DNA from: an uncultured archaeon
Lineage (GTDB): Archaea; Asgardarchaeota; Thorarchaeia; Thorarchaeales; Thorarchaeaceae
NCBI GenBank assembly: GCA_964590575.1
Contig: CAZPWM010000079.1
Coordinates: 1 to 14,526 of the forward strand
Direction of reading: 5' to 3'
DNA length: 14,526 nt
Part shown: piece after piece, positions 1 to 14,526 of the stretch
Layout of the letters: each line of letters opens with the position of its first letter
Numbering within the stretch: position 1 is the stretch's first letter
Translations under genes and position numbers: made by a program
The notes under the pieces: generated by a model
Seen by the model: only the letters and a program-made list of their open reading frames with translations
The model's database searches: none
Told to the model about the DNA's origin: nothing

Positions 1-1
1 T

Positions 2-151
2 CACAATGGTAAGGACTTCACCCGCATCAAAATCATCCCGCAGATGATTGGACACCTAACCGGGGAGTTCAGTAATACGGGAAAACCTGTGAAGCATGGA
101 AATCCAGGAATCGGTGCTACAAAGTCTTCTGCGTACGTACCGCTGAAGTAG
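2..151 (+). CDS. rps19p: 30S ribosomal protein uS19 (S19P/S15e family), 3' part; 5' end lies outside the window
   Basis: Frame 2 reads [49 protein letters not shown], containing the uS19 signature HNGK...MIGHxxGEF and the archaeal/eukaryotic tail HGxPGIGATxSSxxVPLK. Not in the ORF track. Confidence 0.97.
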
Positions 152-175
152 AGAGATTCTATTGAAGAAAGTAGA

Positions 176-200
176 GATACTGAGATAGAGTTTCAGTATC
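176..200. terminator. Hairpin between convergent rps19 and protease genes, possible terminator
   Basis: GATACTGAGA (176-185) pairs with TTTCAGTATC (191-200): 10 bp with one G-U, 5-nt loop. Confidence 0.5.
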
Positions 201-205
201 ATTAT

Positions 206-3200
206 TCAACTTGATGTCTTGCGTTTTATTAGAACAAGCACTACGACGATGACAACAGCTGACCCAGCTGCAATAACTATGATTATGACAGAAGTCATTG
301 GAGTTTCTGGTGTGTCAATCGGTGGATTAGTGTCTGTACCAGTGCCTGTTGAAGTGTCCGTTGATGTAGTTGATGTCGTTTCAGTTGTACTACTGGATTC
401 TGCATTCACTGTGATAAAAACAGTATCAGTGGCTGAGTTTCCAGCAAGATCCCAGAAGATTACTGTGAAGGTGTATGTACCTTCTGAAAGCCCATCTACT
501 ACATATTCTAATCCATCACTCCAAGAGTCAGTTGATATCAATATTCCATCTCTATACAGCTCATAGTAATTCGGGTTCAAATCAGTGCAATCCCAAACAA
601 TCGAGTGTCCTGTAGTTTCCTGTTCGTATTCAATATCTAGCGGTGCTGAAAGATATGGACCTGTGTTATCAACTGTCAAGGCCATAGTAATTGTATGATT
701 ATTCCCAGCAGAATCTGTAGTTGTCATTTCAAACTCATAATATCCATCGGGAATGGAAGTTGAGTTAGAAAACATCCACTGTACAGTTGTAGAATTAATC
801 ATTGTGCCTGTAATTGGATTTTGGAAATATGAGGATATTGTACCAGACGTAAATGTAAGAGCAATGATATATGAACCACCCAAACTGTTAACATAACCGG
901 TGATTGTGATATTGTTTCCACTCTGATACAAATCTGTTGTTGAAGTTAGAAGTGGTGCAGTATTATCAACAAACGTAGTGTCTGAATCCATCACTAGAAT
1001 CGAGTTGAAAACAGCTCTTGCTGAAACATTGTGGACACCATCTGAGAACTGTGTCGTATCCCAATAGTAACTCCAGGAATCAATTCCAGATGCATATCCT
1101 TGGGATACTTCATCAATGAAAAGCTCAACCTGTGATACAGAATCTATAGTGCCAACCAGCTTTACATTGTCAACATATACCCCCTGATAGGTAACAGACA
1201 TGTCGCAGTGGAAATAGAACCCAATTCGAGTCGCTTCTGATGGAATTAACAGGGAGAGATGCTCCCAGCCAGTAGTGCTATCTAGAGAGTAAGGAGTGAT
1301 CCACGTGGAACCGCTATAATATCCCGGACTGAACCAATCGAATCCAGCCTCAACATCGACCCAATAATCAAAAGACATGGTGGCAGAATCAAAGTCACTC
1401 ACATCAATGTAGCAATATGCATAGGAGTCTGCATCATTCTCATATTCGGAGCCTATGTCCCAGATATCGATATCATCTACTGTCATACTGCCAGTATAAT
1501 CACCTTGGAATATGAAGGCAAAGTAGAGTGTTGAACTTATAGCATCCTCAGGCAACATGACTTCCTGTTCACCGATAAACGAGCATGTTTCACCTACTGG
1601 AGCCCACCATCTCTTAAGGTAAGTAAATGAGCTTCCATCAGTGGAATACAGAACACTGGCAAAGTTACTAGCTTGCGCGTTTTGAACTTCATAATCCATC
1701 CAGAATGTAAGGTAGAGTTCGGTCGCTGATGACGTGTCGATTGGACCCTTATACGCCCACTCTTTCACATCATATAATCCGCCTGTAGAACATGTAATTT
1801 CATATTCTAATGGAACACCAGCGTTTGTCCAAGGATGGCTATTTGTGCCTGCACTGTATAGACTCCATCCTGCAGGCCAGCCCAACCACAGTAACGGATT
1901 GAAGTGTTCAGTGTAGATGGCGGTTGAAGATGGAACTCCTCCGCACCAGAGTGATCTTCCTCCTGAGTAACTGTGATATGAATCTATACCCCATAGCTGA
2001 TCACCATTATCAGGATTGTCATCATATGTGAACCATGAACCTTCAAACGAACCCGGTTCGAATCCTACATCAAGAACAGTGACATCGGATTCACCCTGAG
2101 CTGACCCAGTAATCTCCACAGTCCCACCAACATACGTAGCTAATGAATCAATCTCGATAGATGGGATACTTAGAAATACGCTAATTTCACCCCTAGGTTG
2201 ATTGTCCCATATTGTATGAGGTGTTTGCAATGACGTTGCTTCGACGTCCCATTCAGTGGAGCGAACGCTAAAGCTCTCAAGTACACCTGAGTCTGGCCAT
2301 ACTGAGTCTCCAATCTCGATAATGAACTCGTTCTCTGTGTAGGTACTTAGATAGGGTGAAAAATCACTCAGATCAATCAAGATATGACTGCCTGGAAAAG
2401 GATAATTCTGGTATAATCCAGAGTCATCAGACATGATGAACGAATAGAATGTTTCTGACCATTCAGTCCATCCATTTTGATCGAGGCGAATATTGAATCC
2501 TGAGTTTAGAACATCTCCACGCTTATCATGAGAAATCCTGAAAGAAGCTATAAGATTCGGAGTGTATGGTTGACCAATAACATCGCAATAATAGAAACAG
2601 CGTTGAGATAAAGCAGAATCCTTGATAGCTTCATATGACATCCACCAAAAACCATTATCGCCCCAGCCTGAACCCCAAGAATTGACAAGCAAGAAGGCCC
2701 CCGGTCCATCTGCTGTTGTCTTTTGATCATCATAGCCTACAATACAGACTGCATGACCGCCACCTAATTCACCACTTGCATGGTCCGTAACGTAGATGTT
2801 ATTTACAGTATCAAAACTGTAGAAAGCAGTTCTTGTGAAAATGCCTGTGGTTGCAGTATTTCCAGCAGCAAGATATGATTTCAATACCTCTAAATCATCA
2901 TCATCATATAGATAATCCCAATCCGTGGTTGCGATTTTGTATCTCATTGCTTCATTGTATGCAGTTTCTGATGGCCATGTCGTATAGTCACTTGAGCTAT
3001 ATGGCATTATGGACATTGTAGCACAGCCAAAATCATTGATAAGAGAGGATGCATCCGAAAAATACGAGCCCGAATCATCACCGAAATTAATCTGATTGTA
3101 TACAAAAGCTGGACTAAATTGATGGCTTGGATTGGTTGTGTCCCAGAAGCCATTTGCAGCTGCTACTTGGTGTGTAAGAGAGTAATAAGCCCAAGCCCAT

Positions 3201-3619
3201 CCAACACATGACCCTTGAAACCCTTGGTTTCCTACGGGTGGAAGACCGACAAGGTTTGATGCACTTGGAGGATTTGCAGTGTCAGGAGAGCTGCCAGCTA
3301 CTAGGGAAACCGGACTCGTTTGAGCACCTCGTCTGGAATCTTCAAAATCAGTCATGTCCTCAAAGAGCAGTCCAGTTCTCCTATATTCTGAGGTGAACTC
3401 TGGCTCAGTGTAAGTATATGTTTCCTCAATATTTTCAGGGATAGTTAATGTTTCTTCAGTAACTACTTCTAAATTGGAAGACACTATATCCTCTCCGCTA
3501 CTAGACAGAGATGTTCCTTCCATCTTGAAAGGAGTCGATATTGTAGCACTAATTGAAATCATTGGAACCAACATCAAAAGCATAAATGAAACTACAATCA
3601 ATTTTTGTCTCAAGGTCAA
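206..3619 (-). CDS. Secreted, membrane-anchored papain-like (C1A) cysteine protease with jelly-roll (MAM/cleaved-adhesin-like) and Ig-like domains
   Basis: N-terminal signal peptide; catalytic motifs NQGFQGSCVGW (Gln, Cys), GGHAVCIVGYDD (His), NSWGSGWGDNG (Asn); Ig-like motifs WDTTQFSDGVH and DSAGN/DLAGN; Ser/Thr-rich stalk; C-terminal TM helix plus KRK. TTG start preceded by GGTGGGG. Confidence 0.93.
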   Translation of the reverse strand: MTLRQKLIVVSFMLLMLVPMISISATISTPFKMEGTSLSSSGEDIVSSNLEVVTEETLTIPENIEETYTYTEPEFTSEYRRTGLLFEDMTDFEDSRRGAQTSPVSLVAGSSPDTANPPSASNLVGLPPVGNQGFQGSCVGWAWAYYSLTHQVAAANGFWDTTNPSHQFSPAFVYNQINFGDDSGSYFSDASSLINDFGCATMSIMPYSSSDYTTWPSETAYNEAMRYKIATTDWDYLYDDDDLEVLKSYLAAGNTATTGIFTRTAFYSFDTVNNIYVTDHASGELGGGHAVCIVGYDDQKTTADGPGAFLLVNSWGSGWGDNGFWWMSYEAIKDSALSQRCFYYCDVIGQPYTPNLIASFRISHDKRGDVLNSGFNIRLDQNGWTEWSETFYSFIMSDDSGLYQNYPFPGSHILIDLSDFSPYLSTYTENEFIIEIGDSVWPDSGVLESFSVRSTEWDVEATSLQTPHTIWDNQPRGEISVFLSIPSIEIDSLATYVGGTVEITGSAQGESDVTVLDVGFEPGSFEGSWFTYDDNPDNGDQLWGIDSYHSYSGGRSLWCGGVPSSTAIYTEHFNPLLWLGWPAGWSLYSAGTNSHPWTNAGVPLEYEITCSTGGLYDVKEWAYKGPIDTSSATELYLTFWMDYEVQNAQASNFASVLYSTDGSSFTYLKRWWAPVGETCSFIGEQEVMLPEDAISSTLYFAFIFQGDYTGSMTVDDIDIWDIGSEYENDADSYAYCYIDVSDFDSATMSFDYWVDVEAGFDWFSPGYYSGSTWITPYSLDSTTGWEHLSLLIPSEATRIGFYFHCDMSVTYQGVYVDNVKLVGTIDSVSQVELFIDEVSQGYASGIDSWSYYWDTTQFSDGVHNVSARAVFNSILVMDSDTTFVDNTAPLLTSTTDLYQSGNNITITGYVNSLGGSYIIALTFTSGTISSYFQNPITGTMINSTTVQWMFSNSTSIPDGYYEFEMTTTDSAGNNHTITMALTVDNTGPYLSAPLDIEYEQETTGHSIVWDCTDLNPNYYELYRDGILISTDSWSDGLEYVVDGLSEGTYTFTVIFWDLAGNSATDTVFITVNAESSSTTETTSTTSTDTSTGTGTDTNPPIDTPETPMTSVIIIVIAAGSAVVIVVVLVLIKRKTSS

Positions 3620-3654
3620 ATCAGGTACCCCACCACGATTATGAATCTTAATTC

Positions 3655-3675
3655 ATCATAATATTATATATTCCT
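3655..3675 (-). promoter_or_regulatory. Candidate TATA-box promoter for the protease gene
   Basis: Minus strand GGAATATATAATATTATG about 40-50 nt upstream of the TTG start. Confidence 0.35.
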
Positions 3676-3717
3676 AACTAGTCTATAATCTCCGGTGTTA
3701 TCAAATGAAGTACGATA

Positions 3718-3804
3718 CAATTTTCGACAACCAACAAGCCCGTTAAGCATGGAAACCCTGGAATCGGAGCCACCAAGTCCTTAGCATATGTACCATTGAA
3801 GTAG
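3718..3804 (+). repeat. Second copy of the rps19 3' end (orphan gene fragment)
   Basis: Reads [28 protein letters not shown]. Last 60 nt match 92-151 at 48/60, with only one amino-acid change (S>L). Confidence 0.95.
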
Positions 3805-3848
3805 CAGGGAGAAAGATTACACAATTCCACAATGGTTGACCCATTTTG

Positions 3849-4916
3849 CTAGTTTCGTCTATAGCGTTTCCAAACAAGTACTGTGATCAGAGATGTTATG
3901 ATTAGTGGTATTGCCACGATACTGACAATAACAGCTATATTCGGAGGTTGAGGTTTCTGAGGTTGCGGTGACAGGTCAATGCTTCGTGCGTCACCTGGAA
4001 TCGTATAGGGACCAATTCCTGAATAATCATCGTACCAGTTAGAAATCCAAACGTTATCTACACCATTATCTCGTGCATTACCCCAGCTATTTTTTGAAAG
4101 CATATTGAGTGTTATCGTGTTGTTCCTGGATAGATCTAGAACATCTATTCCAAAGCCATTATTTGTGATTGTATTGTTTTTCACCAAGCAACCAATGCCT
4201 TCAAGGTATATTGCGTCTTCACGGTGTTCGGTAATTGTATTGTTGGCAATGACGCAAAACCATGCAGGACCAGACCCACCCCACGCACCAATCCCAACTC
4301 GACCAGTACATTGACCCTCTACGGAATTATGATTTGCTATCGAGTAGTTACTGTCTTGAAAATATAATCCAGCTCCGCTGTACTCGTGCAATATATTGAA
4401 TGAAACATTACAATGAATTGATTCTACAATAATGATACAGGCATCGTTTCCCTTGATGTCAGACTCATAGACTCCGCACTTTTCACAGTCATACATCCAC
4501 ACACTCCAATATCCTCCATTAATTTCACAATCAATCACATTGCAGTTCGACACATTCAACAAGAAGACTCCAAACGTGCCATGTAAAGAAGTATTATCAG
4601 GAAATGGAGTTAGAACGCACCCTTGAATGTTGACAAATGCAGATGTCCCGGTTATATTGATACATGTACGTGTGTCACTGATAGAGTATGCATCTATGAG
4701 AAAGGGATTATTTTGTGTGCCATTCCCAGGCAGTCCCAACTGTGTGAAATTGTCGATATGATTGATTACGATAGGTGAGTGAGGAGTGATTGCGCTTGTA
4801 ACAATGCCTTGATAGTTCAGAGGATTAGAATATGCAGTTTCTGTTATGATATTTGAAACCATCAAAGAATAACATACAGCAATCACTAATGAGTATAGAA
4901 ACACCCGCCCCTTCAT
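3849..4916 (-). CDS. Membrane-anchored right-handed parallel beta-helix (NosD/CASH-like) surface protein
   Basis: Signal peptide; GNGTQNNPFLI cap motif; repeated xxNNTIxxN/GIxL turns; NxWxxNWYDDY...YxIPG...D end motif; Pro/Gln linker; C-terminal TM plus KRYRR. Confidence 0.88.
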   Translation of the reverse strand: MKGRVFLYSLVIAVCYSLMVSNIITETAYSNPLNYQGIVTSAITPHSPIVINHIDNFTQLGLPGNGTQNNPFLIDAYSISDTRTCINITGTSAFVNIQGCVLTPFPDNTSLHGTFGVFLLNVSNCNVIDCEINGGYWSVWMYDCEKCGVYESDIKGNDACIIIVESIHCNVSFNILHEYSGAGLYFQDSNYSIANHNSVEGQCTGRVGIGAWGGSGPAWFCVIANNTITEHREDAIYLEGIGCLVKNNTITNNGFGIDVLDLSRNNTITLNMLSKNSWGNARDNGVDNVWISNWYDDYSGIGPYTIPGDARSIDLSPQPQKPQPPNIAVIVSIVAIPLIITSLITVLVWKRYRRN

Positions 4917-4944
4917 ATTTCATCAGCTCTACTATACACTCCTG

Positions 4945-4962
4945 TATCTAAATGTTTTCAAT
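4945..4962 (-). promoter_or_regulatory. Candidate BRE/TATA promoter for the beta-helix gene
   Basis: Minus strand GAAAACATTTAGATA (purine-rich stretch followed by TTTAGATA) about 30-45 nt upstream of the ATG. Confidence 0.35.
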
Positions 4963-5001
4963 CTTAGAAGGTCAATATACTCAAACCTAGTAATGGTATG
5001 T

Positions 5002-5088
5002 GAATTCAGCTCACCCATGGGTAAGATTAAACATGGAAACCCCGGAATCGGTGCTACAAAGTCCTCTGCGTATGTACCACTGAAATAG
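5002..5088 (+). repeat. Third copy of the rps19 3' end (orphan gene fragment)
   Basis: Reads [28 protein letters not shown]. Last 60 nt match 92-151 at 53/60, and all 7 differences are synonymous. Confidence 0.96.
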
Positions 5089-5093
5089 TTGGT

Positions 5094-5120
5094 GAAGGGG
5101 TCAAGAGACCTCTTCGTTTT
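5094..5120 (+). terminator. Hairpin plus T-tract directly after the third rps19 3' copy
   Basis: GAAGGGGTC-AAGA-GACCTCTTC (9 bp, one G-U) followed by GTTTT. Confidence 0.65.
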
Positions 5121-5201
5121 CATCCTGGTTCTGGATTAGATTTATCTCCCGTCAAGACATAGTAAGAATTGAGAGTGTGAATGAAAAGGGGTCTAATTTC
5201 C

Positions 5202-5837
5202 ATGGATAAATCTACGAGAAAAAGTGTATTCATACTCTATATCATTCTCTTTCTCATATCCACCACCACCGTATCGATGATTCAAATCGGCATGAATGTG
5301 TCTACTGAATACAATCTCAAAATTGATTATGAGAAACACAGGTGCACAATGAATAGCTTTCCTTGGGATCATAGCTATACCAGAGTTGTTGTCGATATGC
5401 CTGTCATGGTTAGCAACCGGGAAACAGTGTGCGATTTCCGCATTGGTAACTTTCCTTTTTGGGTTGACACATCTGGCTGGAGCAATGGTGCTCTTGTTAC
5501 TATTTCTGGATCTACTTATACCATCTCTTCAGAAGGTGTTTGTTGGAAAGCATATCGAGAAATTGATGATTCATTTTATGATACTGTTTACTACCATAAA
5601 GACACAGGGATATTCTACGAGAGTTATACTAATCGAGCTTACATGGATACTTTTAGTTTTAAAGGTTACACTGAAGATACAAAGATACTGAGTAGTAACA
5701 TCGACGGATTTGCGGCAAGAGTGACAGGAAGTAATGTAGTAGCGAACATTGTCCTGCTTAGTGCAATATTCACTGAGGTTTTGATAGTTCAAAGGCTATA
5801 CTCACGAAAAAAGAAGGCGAAGACTTCAATGTCATAA
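5202..5837 (+). CDS. Hypothetical membrane-anchored protein with N- and C-terminal hydrophobic helices
   Basis: Long ORF (track start 5181). ATG at 5202 follows an AGGGGT RBS-like motif. N-terminal TM/signal; C-terminal TM plus RKKK. Confidence 0.8.
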   Translation: MDKSTRKSVFILYIILFLISTTTVSMIQIGMNVSTEYNLKIDYEKHRCTMNSFPWDHSYTRVVVDMPVMVSNRETVCDFRIGNFPFWVDTSGWSNGALVTISGSTYTISSEGVCWKAYREIDDSFYDTVYYHKDTGIFYESYTNRAYMDTFSFKGYTEDTKILSSNIDGFAARVTGSNVVANIVLLSAIFTEVLIVQRLYSRKKKAKTSMS

Positions 5838-5859
5838 AAAACCCTTGAAATGAAAAGGT

Positions 5860-5941
5860 GGCAAACACACGGGAAATCGTGGTAGGAGGGGGAGTTTTCG
5901 TATGAGGGCATTGCTACGAAAAACAAGCCCGTGTGTTCGCC
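5860..5941 (-). other. Nested stem-loop in the convergent intergenic region (3' UTR structure, terminator or small RNA)
   Basis: 14-bp outer stem 5860-5873/5928-5941 (one G-U on the minus strand); perfect 8-bp inner stem 5895-5902/5915-5922. Confidence 0.6.
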
Positions 5942-5946
5942 TTTGC

Positions 5947-6336
5947 TTATTGCCAGTCTTCAAGGACAACATATCCATGAACATAATTCATCTCATTGAA
6001 CCGGTCATATACTTCTGCTGATGCCTTCTCAAGATCGTTTATCCTGAGGGAGTCACCAACTCCGTCTAGCAGCATTCTCCTGAATCTTGAATTCAGGTAT
6101 TCATCCAGCTCTCGAACTGCTCTGAATGTTACTTTCAGACTTACTTTATCCTCACTGTGTTGGTACACCTCTACTCTTGCGTTACTGTGTGATGGTCCTT
6201 TGCGTAGCTCTTCCACGATTGCTAGAGCATTCCTGATGTCCTCCCAGACTGTCAGGGTCTTGCTAAGAAAATTCAGGCCCTCAGTGTCGGGTGGTGTTGG
6301 CGTGGCGATATCCCTACACATTTTCCTATAATACAA
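5947..6336 (-). CDS. Hypothetical protein; start uncertain (TTG 6336 or ATG 6321)
   Basis: 129-aa ORF with globular-protein composition, co-oriented downstream of the LRR gene. No family recognised. Confidence 0.75.
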   Translation of the reverse strand: MYYRKMCRDIATPTPPDTEGLNFLSKTLTVWEDIRNALAIVEELRKGPSHSNARVEVYQHSEDKVSLKVTFRAVRELDEYLNSRFRRMLLDGVGDSLRINDLEKASAEVYDRFNEMNYVHGYVVLEDWQ

Positions 6337-6346
6337 TACGTGTGGA

Positions 6347-6368
6347 ACGAGATAACGATGTATCTCGT
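6347..6368. promoter_or_regulatory. Inverted repeat between the LRR gene and the downstream hypothetical
   Basis: ACGAGATA-N6-TATCTCGT, perfect 8-bp arms. Confidence 0.35.
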
Positions 6369-6396
6369 AATCTCCGAGCTAAGCCGGACAGAGACC

Positions 6397-7044
6397 TCAG
6401 TGCCATTTGATTGCATCGAGAAGGGGCTTTAGACCAATTGGCACCTTGGTTTGCGTCTTCAATTTTGAAGAAGCTGTGAGTGTCACATCCGAATCGATAC
6501 CAAACTTGACGAGATTTGGATTTAGAAAGAGTGGCGAAATATCTATAGTTTCCAGTTGATTCTTCTCTAGTGTCAGATTTCTAAGCTTCTTACACTTGCT
6601 CATGACAGAGAGATCTATACTCTTGAGTTTGTTTTCGTAGAGATGGAGCGTCTTTAGATCTTTGCAATGTACTAGTGGTGTGAGATTAATCGTCTTAATC
6701 CTATTGAATGACAAGCCCAGATGCATCAGACTTGTACACCCCTCTAAGGGTGTGAGGTCAATCTGTTCAATCTCATTACTACCTAGTGAGAGCTCTAGAA
6801 GCGAACCGCACTCTCGAAGTGGAGCGAGGTCAATACTCTGAATCTCGTTCCCGGATAGAGTCAGCGCTTCAATATTGGAGAATTGTCTGAGAATTGATAG
6901 ATCGGTGGTACCAATTCGTCTGTCACTGAGATCAATGCTTGTCGCATTAGGAGGGAATCGCTCAACCACTTTGCCACCTTTCTTAGTCTCGCTCCAGATG
7001 GTAATATCTTCCATTTCTGATTCATCCAAGGTCTTCACATACAT
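6397..7044 (-). CDS. Leucine-rich repeat protein, about six 24-aa repeats
   Basis: Repeating LxPLxxCxxLxxLxLxxNxIxxID unit with a 24-residue period; no signal peptide. Confidence 0.92.
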   Translation of the reverse strand: MYVKTLDESEMEDITIWSETKKGGKVVERFPPNATSIDLSDRRIGTTDLSILRQFSNIEALTLSGNEIQSIDLAPLRECGSLLELSLGSNEIEQIDLTPLEGCTSLMHLGLSFNRIKTINLTPLVHCKDLKTLHLYENKLKSIDLSVMSKCKKLRNLTLEKNQLETIDISPLFLNPNLVKFGIDSDVTLTASSKLKTQTKVPIGLKPLLDAIKWH

Positions 7045-7180
7045 TCCTCACTTATAATCTGGTACGGGTAGTAATTCCGACTTCTGGTTAATGATGTAAG
7101 TTCTAAAGCACCTATCTTTTTTAGATGGAGTTATTTACTCGGACTTGTTTTGTAAAGATACGACTTCTGGAGTTGATCTA

Positions 7181-7510
7181 GTGAGTCTAAAGGGTCCATT
7201 ACGTGACAAGAAGGCCTACATCAAGACAGTCTTAGAGCCTCTAGATGTCCGAATCCAGAGTATGAGGAACCGGACTGTTGGTGATGCAATTTCATACTAT
7301 GAGATCATTTGGGACACTCCATCCGTTGAACCTCGGACAGGTGAGATCGAGGTCACACTAATGTCACGGTTTGATGAGTTATTGTTCAGGGTAGTACCAG
7401 AAAGTCTGACGAGTCAACGGGTCGTACGCAGAGTAACGAGTAGAAGCACCAGAGTCCTATTCAGACACACTGCGAATTTAGAGGTCTCTATTGATACATC
7501 AGCAGTCTGA
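7181..7510 (+). CDS. Hypothetical protein
   Basis: Track ORF starts at 7145; in-frame GTG at 7181 follows a GGAGTTGA RBS-like motif. No family recognised. Confidence 0.7.
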   Translation: MSLKGPLRDKKAYIKTVLEPLDVRIQSMRNRTVGDAISYYEIIWDTPSVEPRTGEIEVTLMSRFDELLFRVVPESLTSQRVVRRVTSRSTRVLFRHTANLEVSIDTSAV

Positions 7511-7578
7511 CTTGGAAATCATCAATCTTTATCTTCATTCGTGCTCAGTTCGACACAGGATAAGTTTCGTGGTGGTTA

Positions 7579-7818
7579 TTGTATAGAATGAATCAGAAGA
7601 AAGGTCTTGGATTAAGAGGACCAGTGGCATTAGCACTGGGAGGAGCAATCACTGTATTCCCATTCTTAGGATTTGCCCAGCTATTATATGAAGGAAGACT
7701 CTCTTTCCCATATGAAGGCGCAGCAATGGGAATGATGCTCTATGTCACCGTCCTCACGTTCTTTGGTTTGTTAATAGCAGGAATGGGGCTCCAGATGATT
7801 TTAGAGGATAGCAAGTAA
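7579..7818 (+). CDS. Small two-TM membrane protein
   Basis: 79 aa with two hydrophobic helices; GGTGG upstream of the TTG start. Confidence 0.75.
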   Translation: MYRMNQKKGLGLRGPVALALGGAITVFPFLGFAQLLYEGRLSFPYEGAAMGMMLYVTVLTFFGLLIAGMGLQMILEDSK

Positions 7819-7828
7819 GGCTTATTGC

Positions 7829-8221
7829 TCAAGTTAGTTTACGGATAGCTCGCATATCCTCAATGAAGAGAAATCCAAATATCAAATCGACAGTAACGAA
7901 CAGAACAACCCATATTGATGCTTGTCCAAGGAAGAACCATATCGTAGGTATTGCGAAGACCATGAATTTCTCAAAACATGCCATCAAGATAAGACCGTGA
8001 TTTTCCTTCATACTTTTACTAACAAGGTAGAAGCCTATTCCAAATACAAAGACCATACCCATGAAAGAATCGAACCAGAGCATTGTGTTTGGTATATCAA
8101 GATCAAATGTCAGAAAATAGTTAATGTCAATCCTCGAGAGCGCAAAAAATGAGGTCGCGAGGAGCCAGTTCCAAATCGCAGCTGCAAGAAACATGAGTCG
8201 ATGATATTGTTCTCTATCCAA
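7829..8221 (-). CDS. Four-TM hypothetical membrane protein
   Basis: 130 aa with four hydrophobic segments; GGTGA RBS 7 nt upstream of the TTG start. Confidence 0.82.
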   Translation of the reverse strand: MDREQYHRLMFLAAAIWNWLLATSFFALSRIDINYFLTFDLDIPNTMLWFDSFMGMVFVFGIGFYLVSKSMKENHGLILMACFEKFMVFAIPTIWFFLGQASIWVVLFVTVDLIFGFLFIEDMRAIRKLT

Positions 8222-8307
8222 TAGGGTTTCACCAATCGGTACTTGATAATCTAAGATATAACTCCAGCGTCTATCTTTCCTATGTATAATCTGCGGGATT
8301 GAAACTG

Positions 8308-8346
8308 AAAAAAGTGGTCACAGGAGAGGTCAGCAGACCCCTCCTG
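8308..8346 (-). terminator. Terminator-like hairpin downstream of the M14 peptidase gene
   Basis: Minus strand CAGGAGGGGTC-TGCT-GACCTCTCCTG (11 bp, one G-U) followed by TGACCACTTTTTT. Confidence 0.7.
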
Positions 8347-8380
8347 AATGCATGTTTCCTACTAGTTGTGGATTTTTGAT

Positions 8381-10084
8381 TCAACGGATTTTCGTAAAAT
8401 AGACCACGAGAACGAGGGCTACAATTGCAACTCCCACAACAACACCAATGAGAAGCGGATCAAGTCCCGCCTCAGGGGTTCCAAGGGATACAACAAACTC
8501 AGTGAATCCAGTGTAGTTGTTACCGATGAACAAGCTGAAACCAGTGGCGGTCAGGTCCTCCGAGAGTTGAACAGTCGCCTGATCTGTAAGGGTTTGACCC
8601 CCGTTCACTGCAATTGTGGAGTCCAGAACATTTCTGGCGCTATCAAGAATCAATACTCCTCCTTTGCTACCAAGACGAGGACTCAGACATTCAGTCCGAG
8701 TAGACAATGTAAGATTATCACCTGTAGTCATTCCACCAGTTATACCAGTCACCATCACATCGAGTCTGGGAGTCATTTCAAGCAGATATTCAAATGCAGC
8801 AAGAAGGTCTTCCCAAAGCGGATTGATACCTGCCTCGACTGGATTGAAATAGCCATAGATCTCTTTCCACTCACGGATGATGTGTGTGTTATTATTCACA
8901 ATGATCGTATAAGCTTCGGCCAAGTCTGCAGAGGCATTGTGATATATCTCGAATGTAATCGGCACCGTGGTGCCTCGTTCATAGTACATCCACCCCTCCC
9001 ATCCGCCGCTTGTACCAGCTTCCTCTGACATTTGTGAGGGAATGTAACCAAGATACTCATTGAAGCCATCTGGCAAAATATCCGCGTAATCGGAAGCTAT
9101 TTGATAATAGAGGACGGGTTCGGTCCAGTCTTCATACTCATCAGTAGGGAAGTATGTTGTGTTGATTCCGGAATGGAGCGAATATGCCATAGCAAATCGG
9201 TGATTCAATGCGAAATCGCGAAATGCCTGAGTTTCATTTTCTGAGAATGGTTCGGTTCCACAATAGACCTGTGTGATTGGATTTTGTAGGTCCGGGTTGT
9301 TGAGACCCCAGAAGACGGGATAGTTTCGATTGAGGTCGACAAGGCCTACTTCATCCTCATTGAATAATGTATCATTATCATTGTCAATTCCTTCCCAATA
9401 CTCCCAATCGTAGTCAAAAATACCGGGAGTTTCTGTGGGATAGTCTTTCTCATAAACTAGGAAATTAGAGATCCATCCATCACCGTTGGTATCCTCAACG
9501 TCATCCTCAGAGGAGTAACCATCGTCATCATTATCGAATGGTTTAAGGTTCTTACGTAACCAGTGATTTCCTTGGTTGACAACCATTTCCAGAGCGTCGG
9601 GATTGAGGGTTGGGATAATGAAAATCTCCTGAGTGTCAACATACTCGGTAATGATATCATCGACACCGTAGTTGTTGAGCAGATGGAGAATGAATCTCAA
9701 AGCCATCTCTACAGTGATCTGCTCTCGTCCATGATGATGTGCAACAACCAATGTCTTTGCCTTCTGGACGGTGTTCATCTCGTTTGTTATACGGAGACAT
9801 GTCAGATTGCGTCCTTGATAACTCTGACCAATTATCTCCAGGTCTACGAGTTCTGGTACAAGACTATGAATATTCTCAATCTCCTCATCCACCTCAATAG
9901 GGTCATGGAACTGCTCATCATAAAGTAGCGAGATATTATCCCACGTTCGGGTCACGGAAGGTGTGACTACCTTCTCTATAATAGGTACAGTTCCTGTTTG
10001 CTGAGAAGCCATCACCTGAACAGGTGCGATGGTCAATGCCAGAATCAGAGTGAGTAGTAAAATCCTTGATCTGGTTTGTGTGAT
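8381..10084 (-). CDS. Membrane-anchored M14 family zinc carboxypeptidase; probable start is ATC at 10084 rather than TTG at 10036
   Basis: M14 motifs HHGRE (HxxE), NPD, LRKN, VDLNRNY, PFSENETQA, YSLHS, TFEI; C-terminal TM. A 16-codon upstream extension completes a signal peptide and follows GAGGTGA. Confidence 0.92.
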   Translation of the reverse strand: MTQTRSRILLLTLILALTIAPVQVMASQQTGTVPIIEKVVTPSVTRTWDNISLLYDEQFHDPIEVDEEIENIHSLVPELVDLEIIGQSYQGRNLTCLRITNEMNTVQKAKTLVVAHHHGREQITVEMALRFILHLLNNYGVDDIITEYVDTQEIFIIPTLNPDALEMVVNQGNHWLRKNLKPFDNDDDGYSSEDDVEDTNGDGWISNFLVYEKDYPTETPGIFDYDWEYWEGIDNDNDTLFNEDEVGLVDLNRNYPVFWGLNNPDLQNPITQVYCGTEPFSENETQAFRDFALNHRFAMAYSLHSGINTTYFPTDEYEDWTEPVLYYQIASDYADILPDGFNEYLGYIPSQMSEEAGTSGGWEGWMYYERGTTVPITFEIYHNASADLAEAYTIIVNNNTHIIREWKEIYGYFNPVEAGINPLWEDLLAAFEYLLEMTPRLDVMVTGITGGMTTGDNLTLSTRTECLSPRLGSKGGVLILDSARNVLDSTIAVNGGQTLTDQATVQLSEDLTATGFSLFIGNNYTGFTEFVVSLGTPEAGLDPLLIGVVVGVAIVALVLVVYFTKIR

Positions 10085-10264
10085 CTTGGTTCACCTCGTA
10101 TTTTGCGCTAGCTCGAAGGTTCCCAGTCAAACCTCCTGACAATCTCATGTTCTGGGACCTAATAGCAGACTCTCAGAATACTAGCATAGATGTAATATGT
10201 TTGAGGTTCAAAGTAATCCTTGTCCCTTTGGTTCTAGCTATATCCTATAATAGCCGTTTCTAAC

Positions 10265-10655
10265 CTGTTTCTTTAGAGTGAGTGAATCTCAACTGAAAGA
10301 AACCTCTGTGTTCCGCCCCTCTCTTGCCAGTGTCACCACCTCTCAAAGTCCATAGGACTTCAAGATTGGCAAGAGCATTGTCAACGTTCATCGGGATGAG
10401 ATCCCTCCTGAAGACCTGGCCTCTTTCTCCTGTCCTGAAGCTAGAACATCACTTCCAGCGACAGAGAGAGTTTCCACAGTTCTTACCACGGCGGGGTCAT
10501 CATCACCCTTCCCAGCATCATCACTGAAACTGAGAAGACTCGTCTGAGCACGGTGAATAACCGCGGACTCTCCGAAACCTGATGTAAGTTTCCTCATGGA
10601 GAGTAAGAACTTCCCTCTGGAAGACTTCCTTCAGGCTTTCAGTCGCGCACGTCGA
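10265..10655 (-). ncRNA. Putative large structured non-coding RNA of unrecognised family
   Basis: Many nested helices whose A-C mismatches on + become G-U pairs on the minus strand; GNRA-capped stems; no convincing ORF. Confidence 0.5.
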
Positions 10656-10975
10656 GCTTTGTCTAAAACCCTAGTCCACAAACCTAGTCCTATCATAATT
10701 TTCTGTATTGATACAAGCATATGAACTCATACAATTAGTATTGTACGAGCTGTGAAGGAGTGAGTTGGATTGATGAGAGAAGAGAGTTTTATCAAGAGAT
10801 AAAGTCACTTTCCACAAACCATCTCTATTGTTTGGTGAGTTCAAAATTGCCGTATGTCCCTGAATGAGTGAATGATACTCATAGCCGTTTAGTTTCACGT
10901 AACCTCTTGCGGTTTTTTTGGTTTGAAACAATGTACATAAGAGGGAACGGACAAAGACTCTAGCGGCGACAGTCC

Positions 10976-11434
10976 ATGAAGAAAGCAATCATCGTCTATG
11001 AAAGTCTCTATGGAAATACGAAGAAGATTGCAGAGGCAATTAGCGAGGGTATAAGCAAAGTGGAAGGTGTTGAATGTCTGATCAGAAAGACCGGAGAGAT
11101 TCACACTGATGACCTCTGTGATTATGACGCAATTCTGTTTGGGTGTCCAAACCATAATCAAGCGCCAGCGTTGAATCTAGTACGTTTTATTGATAGAGCT
11201 GCGATAGTTCATCTCAACGCGAAGATTGGCGCAGTATTTGACACATACACTGGTGGAAACAAGGATGTTGCTGTTGCTAAGCTAGAAGCGATCATACTGA
11301 AGAAACTTCCAGGTATTTCCCTTGAAGGAAGATTATCAGCTAAGGTCACTGGTCGAAAAGGACCACTGGCCGATGATGAAATGTCAAAAGCGAAAGAGTT
11401 TGGGAATAAGTTTGGAAAGAGGATTTTGGAGTAG
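10976..11434 (+). CDS. Flavodoxin family protein
   Basis: FMN phosphate-binding loop IVYESLYGNTKKIAEAI, YDAILFGCP, and KIGAVFDTY; C-terminal AKEFG helix. Confidence 0.93.
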   Translation: MKKAIIVYESLYGNTKKIAEAISEGISKVEGVECLIRKTGEIHTDDLCDYDAILFGCPNHNQAPALNLVRFIDRAAIVHLNAKIGAVFDTYTGGNKDVAVAKLEAIILKKLPGISLEGRLSAKVTGRKGPLADDEMSKAKEFGNKFGKRILE

Positions 11435-11513
11435 CTTCCTCATAATGCTAACAATTCATAAGCATTGGTGCATAGATAGATTCTGGATTTGCGCAGGTTA
11501 GGAGGTAAACCTT

Positions 11514-12119
11514 ATGCAAAGGAAAAAGATGCTATTTGCGATGATTATTGGTATTACCTTGTTCATCACTGACATGATGGTTGGATGGATGTCATTCTCT
11601 CTTGGTGGGATTTGGACTCTCTTTCTCATTGTCTTCATTGTCGGAATCCTTGCGGGTGACATGTCTGGAGGATTCGTTGCAGGGATATTAACTGAGCTAT
11701 TGGGTGTCGGACTATTAGCGATATTTCCAGAAATCTTCTTCCCTGAAATCACTATCTCAGCAACAGACATTCTCTCTCGGATGTGGCTTGTCATGGCATT
11801 ATCACTCTCGTACAGAATGAGATTTCCCGATGCACCAGTTCCATGGATTGAAACTTTAGTGATCATCATATTGCTAATCGCACTTGCCCCTATTGTTTAT
11901 GCGATGGCCCTTCTATTCGGTCCTTTGGGTGGGCTCATTGGCGGTTTCATCTATCGGAGAATCTTCAGACCAGAGGGAACTCCAGTAAGAGCTTCCACTC
12001 AGGCACCTCAAACGTCAGCACCACAACCGCCTCAAGATGAACCGGTGGATGATGCATCACTCCCAGAAACAGACTCTGACGACGAACCATCTGCTCCAGA
12101 TCTTGAACCATCCGAGTGA
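11514..12119 (+). CDS. Hypothetical multi-pass membrane protein with Pro/acidic disordered tail
   Basis: GGAGGT RBS; several Gly-rich hydrophobic helices; low-complexity P/D/E tail. Confidence 0.85.
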   Translation: MQRKKMLFAMIIGITLFITDMMVGWMSFSLGGIWTLFLIVFIVGILAGDMSGGFVAGILTELLGVGLLAIFPEIFFPEITISATDILSRMWLVMALSLSYRMRFPDAPVPWIETLVIIILLIALAPIVYAMALLFGPLGGLIGGFIYRRIFRPEGTPVRASTQAPQTSAPQPPQDEPVDDASLPETDSDDEPSAPDLEPSE

Positions 12120-12283
12120 AGAAGAGATAGAAATACAACAACCCAAATATGCACTAGTTACAGTTATAACATATTATATGCTATTAGTATGATAAGAACT
12201 TACACCAGTTCTAATAATCCCAGATTTCAGTGCATGAGCAGATGTCAACTGAACGACCTGGAGAAAAACCCTGAGATAAAATA

Positions 12284-12616
12284 ATGAAGACTGAGGCGGC
12301 AACCGTGTCTGATACAGAAGTAAAAACTGCATGTGGGCAGTGTTCCTGCATAATAATGTACACTTCCGAGTTCTGTGTTTTTTGTGATGCCGCAGAAGAG
12401 ATTCTGATTGAAGCTCTGACAAACTTCGGGGTCTCTAGAGCTGTCATCCGTCAAGTCGATGTTGAAACAGAGGATGCGTGTGGGTGCAGAACTGATGACG
12501 TCACAATGTTGCCAACTATCAAAGTCTGTGACAAACATCTTACTGGACTGCCAGAAGAACAATCCATGAAGGATGCAGTCATGCAGGCGATCATGAAGGA
12601 TTGTTTCTGCGAGTAG
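12284..12616 (+). CDS. Cysteine-rich thioredoxin/glutaredoxin-like protein
   Basis: YTSEFCVFC (CxxC after strand 1), VDV, and the cis-Pro motif VTMLPTI followed by LTGLP. Confidence 0.82.
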   Translation: MKTEAATVSDTEVKTACGQCSCIIMYTSEFCVFCDAAEEILIEALTNFGVSRAVIRQVDVETEDACGCRTDDVTMLPTIKVCDKHLTGLPEEQSMKDAVMQAIMKDCFCE

Positions 12617-12618
12617 TG

Positions 12619-13098
12619 CTAGAAATCTAGTTGAATTGTCTCCCAACGTACTTTTCCCTGCTCCACTGCTTCTTTGATTTTCCGTTCAGTACGATTCAAT
12701 GTCGCGTTACCAGTCTTGATGTCCGCCAGAACCACTGTAATGGGTTTATCGGAGTTACTGTCCTTGACTGCTGTATATCCATCGAAAATAATGTAATCGA
12801 TGGGGGCTCCAAGGAACCGGGCATCTGAGGGGTCATATTTGAAGACATCTTTGTACATTGGAACCATGTGCTCGGCAATCTTTCCCTTCAAGACATACCG
12901 ACTTCTATCCGCAGCATCTTTTCTGATTGAAGACTCCTGTTCAGCCCAGGTCAGGCGAAACTCCTTCTCTACCATTGCAATCCTATGACGAAGTTGCATT
13001 TTCATTATCAAATAGACAGAGGCAGCTAGAACCAGTCCAATCGATAAGCCAATGAGAATATCTGTGAATGCCATACAATGATTTGTAATTGACTCCAT
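12619..13098 (-). CDS. Holliday-junction-resolvase-like PD-(D/E)xK endonuclease with N-terminal TM anchor (Endonuc_Holl-type)
   Basis: N-terminal TM, coiled segment, and family motifs SRYVLKGKIAEH, DARFLGAPIDYIIFDG, DIKTG, VRWE. Confidence 0.87.
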   Translation of the reverse strand: MESITNHCMAFTDILIGLSIGLVLAASVYLIMKMQLRHRIAMVEKEFRLTWAEQESSIRKDAADRSRYVLKGKIAEHMVPMYKDVFKYDPSDARFLGAPIDYIIFDGYTAVKDSNSDKPITVVLADIKTGNATLNRTERKIKEAVEQGKVRWETIQLDF

Positions 13099-13283
13099 AT
13101 ATTCTCAGGTAATCAGGGGGTATTCGCCAGAGATTACATTTCTCATAGGAAAAAAGTGGAAGGAGAGCAAAAAGCATTCACATTAGATAGAGATTCTCGC
13201 TAAATAATACTACATAATGACTGAGTTTCATCAAACCCGACCCTTAAGTGTGAGTTTCGTAAGAAGATAGGTGGTGAGTCAGT

Positions 13284-14333
13284 GTGTCCGAAGAAACCTT
13301 GGAACTCCTGAAGGTGTTGTCAGCAACCCCAGGTCCAGTTGGAAGAGAAGCATTGGTCCAAGATATTGTCAAAGAGCGCTTCAAGGATCATTGTGGGGGT
13401 TTCACTCAGGATCGTATTGGCAATGTTGTGGGAACCTTAGAAGGAGATATCGACAAACACTACGCAATAGTAGCTCATGCTGATGAAGTGGGTTTCCTCG
13501 TGAGTAGCATAGATGAGAAAGGTTTCTTACGCGTCAAATGGAATACGCAGGGACACTTGCCAGACCTTAGACTCCTCCCAGGACAATGGGTCTTGATTTT
13601 GACTGAGAAAGGTTTGATACCCGGGGTATTTTGCGTAAAGACTGCACATTTAGCAGGACCTGAGGGAAAAAACAGAATCCCAACTTATGAAGAGGTCTTC
13701 TTGGATATTGGAGCTAAAAATGCAGAGGATATTCAGGAATTGGGTATTAACATAGGAGACCCAGTAATCTATGCAGCACCTGTTGAGAGGTTGTTGAATC
13801 ATCACGTATCAGGAAAATCAATGGATGACAGAGTTGGACTCGTAGTGTTATTGAGGGCCTTGGAGCAATTTGCCAAAATGCCAAAAGCCAAACGACCCAC
13901 TATCACCTTTGTATCCACAGTGATGGAGGAATTAGGAGCAAAAGGAGCAGCTGTAGTAGCAAAAGACCTTGATGTGGATGCAATCATTATTCTGGACATT
14001 GGTCTCGCAGACGATCATCCAGGGACAAATGGAGAGTTTGGTATCTCTCTTGGAAAAGGACCGATCATTGTTATCAAGGACAGCGCGATGCATTACTCAC
14101 ATGAATTTGTTCTGAGGATAATCAAAACAGCTGAGAAAGAGAAAATTCCAATACAACGGGCTGTTTTCCACTCGTACATGACGGATGGCGTCCAGTTTGC
14201 TTCTCAAGGTCAGGTTGTATCTGTCTTGGCAATACCTTGTAGATATTCACATTCAAGCTTTGAAACTGTAAACCTCTTGGATGTCGACATGACTATTCAT
14301 CTACTGATGAAACTACTCACATCTAATTCCTAG
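13284..14333 (+). CDS. M42 family metallo-aminopeptidase (TET/FrvX-like)
   Basis: GPVGRE, DRIGN, AHADEVG, GKSMDDRVG, MEELGAKGA, LDIG, TDG, IPCRYSHS. GTG start after GGTGGTGA. Confidence 0.95.
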   Translation: MSEETLELLKVLSATPGPVGREALVQDIVKERFKDHCGGFTQDRIGNVVGTLEGDIDKHYAIVAHADEVGFLVSSIDEKGFLRVKWNTQGHLPDLRLLPGQWVLILTEKGLIPGVFCVKTAHLAGPEGKNRIPTYEEVFLDIGAKNAEDIQELGINIGDPVIYAAPVERLLNHHVSGKSMDDRVGLVVLLRALEQFAKMPKAKRPTITFVSTVMEELGAKGAAVVAKDLDVDAIIILDIGLADDHPGTNGEFGISLGKGPIIVIKDSAMHYSHEFVLRIIKTAEKEKIPIQRAVFHSYMTDGVQFASQGQVVSVLAIPCRYSHSSFETVNLLDVDMTIHLLMKLLTSNS

Positions 14334-14526
14334 CAGTTTTGTCAGCGTATGGTTCCACTAATACTTTCAGGCTCTCGCGGGAAACAATAACGACCTCTGT
14401 ACCTGATTTTATATCTCCAACATCACATCGAGCATCCCAGATTTCAGCACCGACCCGTATCTTACCTGCAACTTGTGATACGTCTTTGATTACAGTGCCT
14501 CTCATTCCTTGGAGCTCATAGAAGGG
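14323..14526 (-). CDS. NfeD-family C-terminal OB-fold domain, 3' part; gene begins outside the window
   Basis: GMRGTVI...GKIRVGAEIWDAR...IKSGTEVVIVSRESLKVLVEP matches the NfeD-C pattern. Stop overlaps the M42 gene end by 11 nt. Confidence 0.85.
   Translation of the reverse strand, partial: PFYELQGMRGTVIKDVSQVAGKIRVGAEIWDARCDVGDIKSGTEVVIVSRESLKVLVEPYADKTARN

Follow-up and report, generated by a model that had tools for sequence, protein, structure and literature searches.

Repeated rps19 ends enclose two surface-protein genes

We analysed a stretch of 14,526 bp from an uncultured archaeon of the Thorarchaeaceae (contig CAZPWM010000079.1 of assembly GCA_964590575.1), called the window below, in which the 3′ part of rps19, the gene of ribosomal protein uS19, is followed by two gene cassettes, each closed by a further copy of the rps19 end. 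The window is the entire contig C79 of a metagenome-assembled genome (MAG; 3.4 Mb in 194 contigs, 91% complete), referred to as G000. A repeat search returned one three-copy family of direct repeats (83-151, 3736-3804 and 5020-5088; 69 nt, 78% identity) at spacings of 3653 and 1284 nt. At the protein level the homology extends to a Phe codon (68-70, 3721-3723 and 5005-5007), which gives repeats of 84-87 nt including the stop codon. When the terminal 49 aa of rps19 were compared with the 3.4-Mb genome by tblastn, only these three sites were matched (E values of 5e-30, 4e-12 and 1e-9; 0.98 for the next match), so the repeats are not a chance resemblance.

Each interval between two copies contains one gene convergent to rps19 (Table 1). 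The spacer in front of it is 54 nt in the first interval (stop codon at 151 to the open reading frame (ORF) 206-3619) and 44 nt in the second (fragment 1 to ORF 3849-4916), and on the other side about 100 nt separate cargo 1 from fragment 1 and 85 nt separate cargo 2 from fragment 2. Both cargo proteins begin with a hydrophobic segment and carry a second one, with basic residues behind it, at the C-terminus, as read from the sequence with a crude transmembrane rule in place of a signal-peptide program. Candidate promoters upstream of the cargo genes, AT-rich and TATA-like, were judged by eye. Fragment 1 is preceded by an in-frame TGA (3706-3708) and differs from the live tail by 11 synonymous codons and 1 non-synonymous codon. 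A preliminary description of this DNA had reported rps19-end direct repeats and the layout of stop codon, 44-54 nt spacer, one convergent gene, about 85-100 nt and next fragment; the repeats are real and lie at most 3 nt from where it had placed them, and the layout agrees with our coordinates. In the window, the ancestral end (5002-5088) was probably joined first by the NosD cassette and later by the peptidase cassette.

Table 1. Features of the rps19 array and its surroundings in the 14,526-bp window
Feature	Position	Strand	Evidence
rps19 (uS19) 3′ part, archaeal-type, stand-alone, 49 codons + stop	2..151	+	translation; PF00203 match over cut-off
Live tail, repeat copy 1, last 28 codons + stop; part duplicated downstream	66..151	+	repeats, tblastn
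Terminator-like hairpin after the live stop, belongs to incoming unit	176..200		fold z -2.76 for 62-205; similar hairpins after most tails in relatives
Cassette 1, newest, gene-proximal	152..3720		missing from near-identical strain; X13 contig joins rps19 position 55 to 3724
Cargo 1, 1137-aa surface protein: papain-family peptidase, Ig-like domains, C-terminal membrane anchor	206..3619	-	Pfam PF00112, PF19077, PF22352
Fragment 1, displaced rps19 tail, 27 codons + stop; live tail in X13 strain	3721..3804	+	repeats, tblastn, contigs
Cassette 2, older	3805..5001		common to genome G018 (86.9% identity) and G022 (68%)
Cargo 2, 355-aa NosD-type beta-helix surface protein, C-terminal membrane anchor	3849..4916	-	Pfam PF05048, E 1e-18
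Fragment 2, oldest displaced tail, 28 codons + stop, joined to conserved backbone	5002..5088	+	repeats, tblastn
Hairpin after fragment 2, start of backbone	5094..5115		conserved in seven related arrays; fold
Conserved backbone: 218-aa membrane protein, LRR protein, M14 carboxypeptidase, flavodoxin-like ORF, Endonuc_Holl protein, M42 peptidase	5181..14526		Pfam, relatives

Cassettes vary between strains and between species

At the strain level, the first 6 kb of the window were found, at least partly, in 20 public runs from 15 studies (salt marsh, aquatic and marine sediment), the evidence being assembled Logan contigs and not raw reads. All junctions of the array are bridged by independent contigs (records 17 and 18 of X2, covering 1-2318 and 2300-5089, and record 5 of X1, covering 3556-5596), so that a chimeric MAG contig is excluded; parts of the window are without contig cover in runs X8 and X13. 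A 1141-nt contig of X13 matches the window over 3724-4792 with 14 differences in 1069 positions (98.7% identical) and continues through 15 nt (Gly-Glu-Phe) into rps19 positions 55 to 1, skipping 3668 nt. In this near-identical strain, therefore, rps19 is uninterrupted, its live end is fragment 1, the NosD cassette follows and the peptidase cassette is absent. A second X13 contig of lower depth joins position 55 to 5002, that is, rps19 to fragment 2, which hints at an empty site in a more distant relative. Both X13 forms fit a stepwise accretion at the gene-proximal end.

Among 87 genomes of the class Thorarchaeia, 74 have matches to the rps19 end and 31 have at least two. Truncated tails, 1-8 per genome in this count, are present in 30 of the 87 (G073, with two full-length copies, was left out), and the carriers are 18 of the 28 genomes of the window's genus, 7 of 17 in g25 and one each in g16, g17, g22, g26 and g27; none was found in ten other genera of the class. 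In 15 genomes from other classes of the phylum, only rps19 itself and chance-level second matches turned up. A carrier genome has from one fragment to as many as seven to nine, with seven on contig C188 of G015 and nine on contig C84 of G071. Many Thorarchaeota loci are fragment-free within 10 kb downstream, and in some, such as G006, rps19 runs straight into the backbone; the contigs of many relatives break at rps19. The backbone (5181-14526) is collinear in relatives both with and without arrays and 71-82% identical to them. Throughout, each interval closes with a 5′-truncated tail which retains its stop codon and is usually followed by a hairpin, and the same architecture is seen inside long contigs of more than 25 species. 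Empty and occupied sites thus occur among the relatives with the boundary at the repeat, and the X13 strain skips cassette 1 exactly at the tail.

The cargo of the relatives is diverse. It includes an approximately 600-aa membrane protein without a Pfam family (m600; seven genomes), an MFS transporter, a TPR-carbon-nitrogen hydrolase protein, a 246-aa membrane protein, NosD-type proteins, a four-gene Bmp/ABC transporter and a radical-SAM/DUF2064/glycosyltransferase cluster. The array of G015 carries an Mrr-type nuclease (PADLOC PDC-S02, E 3.5e-140), a DrmC-like PLD nuclease and an HD-CE/HATPase protein, and that of G071 mainly small anchored surface proteins. Many units are 0.6-1.3 kb long with one cellular-type gene, and some cassettes contain 2-4 genes. 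The order of cassettes is not fixed: m600 precedes the MFS gene in G012, and the two are reversed in G024. Some co-directional cargo ORFs (MFS and m600) cross the junction and terminate inside the rps19 fragment (L037 at 6752-6838, L035 of G015, L040 of G024 and L051 of G013); in G013, ORF 9050-10936 terminates in frame with the last four rps19 residues. The natural 3′ ends of these ORFs seem to have been cut off at the junction.

The preliminary description had read the locus as additive gene capture at the rps19 3′ end with displaced ends between the cassettes, and the variable relatives and the X13 strain bear this out. Tabulating copy number and cargo downstream of rps19, as it had suggested, showed that the arrays vary, that some sites are empty and that one strain lacks a cassette; a fixed gene order or a chimeric assembly, which it had named as the findings that would speak against it, was not seen, since the order varies and Logan contigs bridge the junctions. 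Its picture of the cargo was too narrow. Both genes in the window do encode surface proteins, whereas the cargo of relatives also comprises transporters of the MFS and ABC types, Mrr and PLD defence nucleases, TPR proteins and a radical-SAM cluster, and single-gene cassettes hold for the two window units but not for the relatives with 2-4 genes per cassette.

On contig C6 of G049 (L161), which is not the contig of rps19, a tail fragment of this gene follows electron-transfer-flavoprotein genes and the gene of a 630-aa surface protein; it may be a part of an array relocated by rearrangement.

Origin of the fragments and transfer of cassettes

To characterize the fragments, codon differences in the last 20 codons were counted between 45 fragments and 49 full genes. 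It turned out that 81% were synonymous (23,952 synonymous and 5,771 non-synonymous), compared with 84% between full genes and 26% for single random substitutions. Most of the fragments (31 of 45) have no or one amino-acid change in the last 19 residues, and two contain a stop codon; some distal fragments have stop codons or several amino-acid changes. The nucleotide identity between a fragment and the resident live tail is 65-90%, and in the variable linker before Val-Lys-His-Gly the fragments have allele types that are live in other species. Because the differences are largely synonymous and the alleles are live elsewhere, the fragments, or the tails replacing them, come from diverged lineages and are not decayed local duplicates. 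Judging from this codon comparison, the fragments are displaced working ends.

Cassettes have also crossed species borders. The TPR-hydrolase cassettes of G009 and G002 are 93.3% identical and the 246-aa cassettes of G014 and G004 are 91.9% identical, whereas the nrdD body (900 nt) of the same pairs is only 79.2% and 79.4% identical, which by these identities shows recent cassette transfer between species. Besides, the variable part of the tail is alike within the genome in G018, G071, G015 and G024, which fits gene conversion.

Two signals of the exchange site

For pairs of arrays that share the left cassette and differ in the right one, the -86 to -61 part of the tail is 0.73-0.96 identical (0.45 for random pairs), and the rest of the tail stays at the baseline (0.63-0.80 against 0.70). 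For pairs sharing the right cassette, the sequence after the stop codon is 0.87-0.93 identical and the last 30 nt 0.83-0.90, with only 0.46-0.62 in the -86 to -61 part. These linkage patterns imply that a transferable unit starts within one tail and extends into the following one, and that the break falls in the conserved core encoding Lys-His-Gly-Asn-Pro-Gly-Ile-Gly. The other signal is an outer left limit at -86, common to about half of the 45 fragments in relatives. In the alignments, the two signals point in different directions. A restriction-site-like AATT stands at the boundary in about half of the long fragments, from which nothing was drawn, since the Glu-Phe codons give it too. At the junctions on the cargo side in G000, inspection by eye, with no motif program applied, revealed no conserved motif.

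The same pattern at other genes

The preliminary description had treated rps19 as the landing pad of the system and proposed a scan of other genes for 3′ fragments. The rps19 tails do vary across relatives, but rps19 is not unique, since the pattern was found at nrdD and at least six further genes of G000, with fragments of variable length. Scanning G000 for short partial gene copies at most 25 kb from the parent gave 21 fragments, all on the strand of the parent, including 9 C-terminal pieces downstream of it, several more near-C-terminal ones and 1 N-terminal piece upstream. The parents include an nrdD-like gene on C44 (fragments at +4690 and +6869) and a carboxyltransferase gene on C67 (+688 and +1847), and further ones lie on C7, C62, C84, C16, C45 and C108; one parent we take from its sequence to be a putative methylmalonyl-CoA mutase gene. 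The repeats measure 66-100 nt at several genes, and the DNA between parent and fragment often consists of single convergent genes for anchored surface proteins.

The nrdD end recurs in 16 of the 28 genomes of the genus, with up to 5 fragments each, and the 39 nrdD fragments in 17 loci have boundaries from about -75 to -40. No cassette is common to the rps19 and nrdD arrays, where one weak repeat-protein match was the only similarity; mobility therefore depends on the tail and not on the cargo. The single upstream case lies on C47, where 319-582 matches the gene at 4244-5464 over 88 aa with 72% identity and a 942-aa anchored beta-helix gene stands between the two. It may be a mirror-image event at a 5′ end.

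Search for a recombinase

The tyrosine recombinase family PF00589 has no match in G000 and is absent from 20 of the 28 genomes of the genus (71-97% complete), including the array carriers G014, G009, G007, G017, G022, G004 and G005. Where the genus does have PF00589 genes, they lie on contigs other than the array contigs. A XerA-type enzyme may be missing from the genomes of the genus without PF00589. One resolvase-family gene is present on C123, and contig C116 of G020 carries three PF00589 genes in a row. The ORFs of all 13 recombinase loci of the genus were compared by tblastn with 75 rps19 loci (894 kb), and nothing recombinase-like was found. Pfam scans of 38 cargo proteins gave no tyrosine or serine integrase, no casposase and no Cas1, which was not searched by its own family; one OrfB_IS605/TnpB gene occurs, in the backbone of G024 only.

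The ends of the units also differ from those of known elements. The repeat search found no terminal inverted repeats, and the target-site duplications of casposons and transposons (about 14-15 bp, identical) are not matched by repeats of 57-90 nt that are 65-90% identical with synonymous differences. An attC-like fold is absent: three tails folded on both strands gave z values of -2.8, +0.95, -0.8, -2.2, +1.3 and -0.6, and only short terminator-like hairpins appear, after copies 1 and 3. Inverted repeats of at least 20 nt were not found at the tails, and attC was judged without a covariance model.

The scans agree with the statement of the preliminary description that its units have no recombinase. 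The co-occurring recombinase that it had proposed to look for did not appear in these scans, and its integron-like label does not apply in the strict sense, since the locus and the genome as a whole lack IntI and any other tyrosine recombinase and an attC-like fold is absent.

Three candidate mobilisers were also considered and dropped. In IMG/VR, 18 pattern matches to the tail were obtained and none was confirmed as a viral contig carrying it. In G089, the 16-kb island from rps19 to the fragment was considered as an intact element; it encodes HerA-like and HTH proteins and no integrase. The window itself encodes, at 12619-13098 (minus strand), a protein of 159 aa that combines a hydrophobic segment at its N-terminus with an Endonuc_Holl domain (archaeal Holliday-junction resolvase-related, E 8e-32). 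As the engine this membrane-anchored protein has no support, its gene being a backbone gene also found in array-less genomes.

Genomic context of rps19 and other features of the window

The PF00203 match over 2-97 of the window scores 39.1 bits (cut-off 27), and rps19 is single-copy in the assembly; a second match on C38 is below the threshold and is not rps19. As the contig starts inside rps19, the 5′ part of the gene is missing from the assembly; the complete gene encodes 136 aa in relatives. In G000, rpl3-rpl4-rpl23-rpl2 are on C11 and rpl22-rps3 with the following genes on C17, and rps19 stands with neither. Likewise, rpl2 and rpl22 are absent within 10 kb of rps19 in 47 of 47 Thorarchaeota loci (L055-L098, L103, L121 and L123), so rps19 is solitary in this lineage, whereas 30 non-Thorarchaeota loci retain rpl2, rpl22 or both near rps19. 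In Thorarchaeota a non-ribosomal ORF follows rpl2 and the rpl22-rps3 operon begins without rps19; other Asgard loci retain rps19-rpl22, and Bathyarchaeia loci retain rpl2-rps19.

A gene for a small TPR protein lies directly before rps19 in relatives. The single-contig Thorarchaeota chromosome G073 has two TPR-rps19 copies (L160, G073:C1:1260000-1268000; L072, CP070658.1), which lie about 55 kb from each other in inverted orientation and share 82% identity over 1.3 kb; the second rps19 may be a genuine paralogue, a copy captured from elsewhere or the product of a chimeric assembly.

ARAGORN found 0 tRNA or tmRNA genes in the whole window, so the proximal border is not a tRNA gene, and Rfam gave 0 matches across the whole window at the gathering score and none in 1-5400 at E of at most 1. 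An alternative genetic code or a hidden RNA gene was dropped as an explanation on these grounds. Downstream of the array, a short ORF (7145-7510, plus strand) between the LRR gene and the gene of a 121-aa membrane protein has a terminal motif conserved across relatives, and about 900 nt before the flavodoxin-like gene (10040-10970) are without a long ORF or Rfam match.

Possible mechanism and alternative explanations

These observations show that the locus in Thorarchaeia is a flexible genomic island which grows by addition and has its anchor in the final ~86 nt of rps19: cassettes are present or absent within a species, no known integrase is found, and the same architecture occurs at other conserved genes. 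The target gene is restored by sequence that the element brings, and the displaced fragment lies at the distal border, as expected of such an island.

As to the engine, we see about an even chance that host homologous recombination moves the cassettes, with the tails as portable homology and no integrase encoded in the cassettes. Incoming DNA would bring a replacement rps19 end (about 28 codons, stop codon and terminator hairpin) followed by the cargo. Recombination inside the gene end would then leave rps19 intact and shift the old end downstream as a 5′-truncated silent fragment, and repeated rounds would stack the cassettes with the newest nearest to rps19. A cassette flanked by two tail segments could be passed between strains or species, reshuffled or deleted by recombination in the conserved core, while the first junction of each cassette would stem from a rarer event that prefers position -86. 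The kind of enzyme is inferred, and circles may or may not be intermediates; among the Logan contigs, in which rare forms would not show, no backward-running joint was reported. Host recombination is favoured because there are many landing pads with locus-specific cassette pools, the linkage break falls where the tail is best conserved, the fragments at the other genes are of variable length, the variable part of the tail is homogenised within genomes and no recombinase was found.

Several findings weigh against this mechanism. Live tails and fragments that are 65-90% identical are a poor substrate for homologous recombination across species. The left limit is sharp: the invariant G at -87 is retained in 3 of 45 fragments, and T at -83 with Y at -84 in 23 of 45, beside about 18 unrelated cassette ends, so that the limit looks like that of a site-specific process and unlike random homologous exchange. 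Plain single-crossover integration predicts both kinds of fragment, and the count in G000 is lopsided (9 downstream C-terminal against 1 upstream N-terminal). Besides, rps19 positions 56-66 also differ between the window and the X13 strain, and the event is not resolvable to one crossover. Finally, the MAGs are 71-99% complete and extrachromosomal elements often stay unbinned, which limits the integrase negatives.

Some of these points would be explained if the cassettes were integrated in trans by an unrecognised or unbinned site-specific recombinase, either a tyrosine recombinase of a plasmid or virus or a new family, with an att site that spans the tail and has its boundary at -86. The cassettes would then be integrase-less satellites or integron-like units, and the other landing pads would have their own enzymes or share one loosely specific enzyme. 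We regard such integration as possible, though less likely than not. The -86 limit common to about 18 unrelated cassette ends, the exclusive use of 3′ ends, the similar repeat size of 66-100 nt at several genes and the tolerance of 65-90% partner identity, typical of att sites that restore a gene end, would all be expected; a restored target with a displaced fragment is classical (PMC4383910), and thaumarchaeal elements in 3′-distal parts of protein genes, with tandem reuse of sites, are reported in PMC6563490. It would be harder to reconcile with a genus in which 20 of 28 genomes have no PF00589 and no array contig carries it, with 894 kb of rps19 loci free of recombinase homologues, and with a tail found on no IMG/VR contig. 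At least eight target genes in one genome would demand many specificities, the nrdD boundaries spread from -75 to -40, the linkage breaks in the conserved core and not at -86, and co-directional cargo ORFs (MFS and m600) run into the fragment, where the cargo-side breakpoint looks arbitrary.

Another explanation, which we consider unlikely, is that the arrays are graveyards and not a working system, made of remnants of ordinary integrative elements (proviruses or plasmids), each of which arrived with its own integrase and then lost this gene by deletion. Tandem arrays with partial target copies and degenerated elements are known for tRNA-targeting elements (bioRxiv 10.1101/2020.12.28.424599), and the stop codons or amino-acid changes of some distal fragments would agree with decay. 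Yet more than 60 cassettes in more than 25 genomes contain neither an integrase or integrase fragment nor a viral or plasmid hallmark gene, many units of 0.6-1.3 kb hold one cellular-type gene, and the nearly intact fragments (31 of 45 with 0-1 change in 19 residues) together with cassettes 92-93% identical across species argue for fast, continuing turnover. Local duplication of the resident tail, or a chimeric joining of strains in the MAG, is highly improbable. The window is indeed a MAG contig that starts inside rps19, and many contigs of relatives break at this gene; but the differences from the resident tail are 81% synonymous, unlike those of a local duplicate, the 5′-truncated fragments flanked by non-rps19 sequence cannot result from a mis-join, independent assemblies from other studies bridge all junctions, and the architecture recurs inside long contigs of more than 25 species.

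Comparison with known systems and significance

Phage 21 and e14 insert in the 3′ end of a protein gene, icd of E. coli, and restore it. Islands in the 3′ ends of tRNA, tmRNA or protein genes restore the split target and leave a displaced fragment (PMC4383910), and 14 of 68 thaumarchaeal elements lie in the 3′-distal parts of protein genes, with tandem site reuse known (PMC6563490). The rps19 array resembles these Islander-type islands and thaumarchaeal integrated mobile genetic elements in that the new 3′ end comes from incoming DNA, the old end lies at the far border and tandem arrays form (PMC4383910 and PMC6563490). Those elements, however, encode or adjoin a tyrosine integrase or a casposase, whereas the rps19 cassettes, their contigs and most of the genomes have none; a unit at rps19 frequently comprises one cellular-type gene in about 1 kb, and the repeat, with about 86 nt plus terminator, is long. 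In the tycheposon islands of Prochlorococcus, growth likewise takes place next to the target gene, and partial copies of the target separate the elements; but they target tRNA genes and comprise active elements with tyrosine recombinases and replication modules, lone partial tRNAs being read as remnants (bioRxiv 10.1101/2020.12.28.424599). The Aloposons of Heimdallarchaeum use tRNA sites (PMC8813620).

With integrons the array shares an ordered, mostly single-gene series of promoter-poor or self-promoted units, a repeat after each, entry at one end and diverse cargo. In contrast to integrons, it has no IntI and no attI or attC, its direct repeats are derived from coding sequence, and its cassettes stand in either orientation with their own upstream regions. 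Archaeal integrons are said to have been described by Ghaly et al. in 2022. In core-gene-flanked hotspots and additive flexible islands, too, surface and defence genes turn over beside a conserved gene without a resident mobile element, but the hotspot models leave no ladder of truncated ends of the flanking gene between the inserted genes. Oliveira, Touchon and Rocha (2017) and Rodriguez-Valera and co-workers have reportedly proposed homologous recombination in the conserved flank as the engine of such hotspots.

In the open-access PMC and bioRxiv literature, supplements excluded, no paper was found that names rps19 as a site of integration or describes arrays of this kind from Thorarchaeota. 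What differs from known islands is the lack of an integrase, units that are often single cellular-type genes, the ribosomal and other core genes as landing pads and the spread over seven genera. The rps19 array is real, recurrent and recently active, and its recombination engine is possibly novel.

Asgard archaea are the closest known relatives of eukaryotes. To our knowledge, how they acquire genes is largely unknown, and the mobile elements reported from them are for the most part viruses, transposons and elements that target tRNA genes. At the rps19 locus, accessory genes are added beside essential genes recurrently, precisely and apparently without an integrase, and the essential genes are not broken. 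The activity is recent enough for near-identical strains to differ and for cassettes 92-93% identical to cross between species whose identity in a core gene is about 79%. Flexible islands of uncultured archaea can be mapped by the truncated tails, which are an easily recognised sequence signature; the order in which cassettes were acquired can be read from the ladder of tails, and the cargo of surface proteins, transporters and defence nucleases hints at the selective pressures on these organisms.

In conclusion, we tentatively suggest, with a confidence somewhat short of even, that Thorarchaeia and perhaps other Asgard archaea have an undescribed gene-capture system. Conserved genes (rps19, nrdD, the carboxyltransferase gene and others) would provide the boundaries of its cassettes with their final ~60-90 nt, and the cassettes would be gained, shuffled and exchanged between species by host enzymes acting on portable tails or by a recombinase of a new family, and it might be a functional archaeal counterpart of the integron for surface, transport and defence genes. 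Should host recombination on portable homologies of about 60 nt, or a new recombinase, turn out to be the engine, it would be of mechanistic and possibly technical interest.

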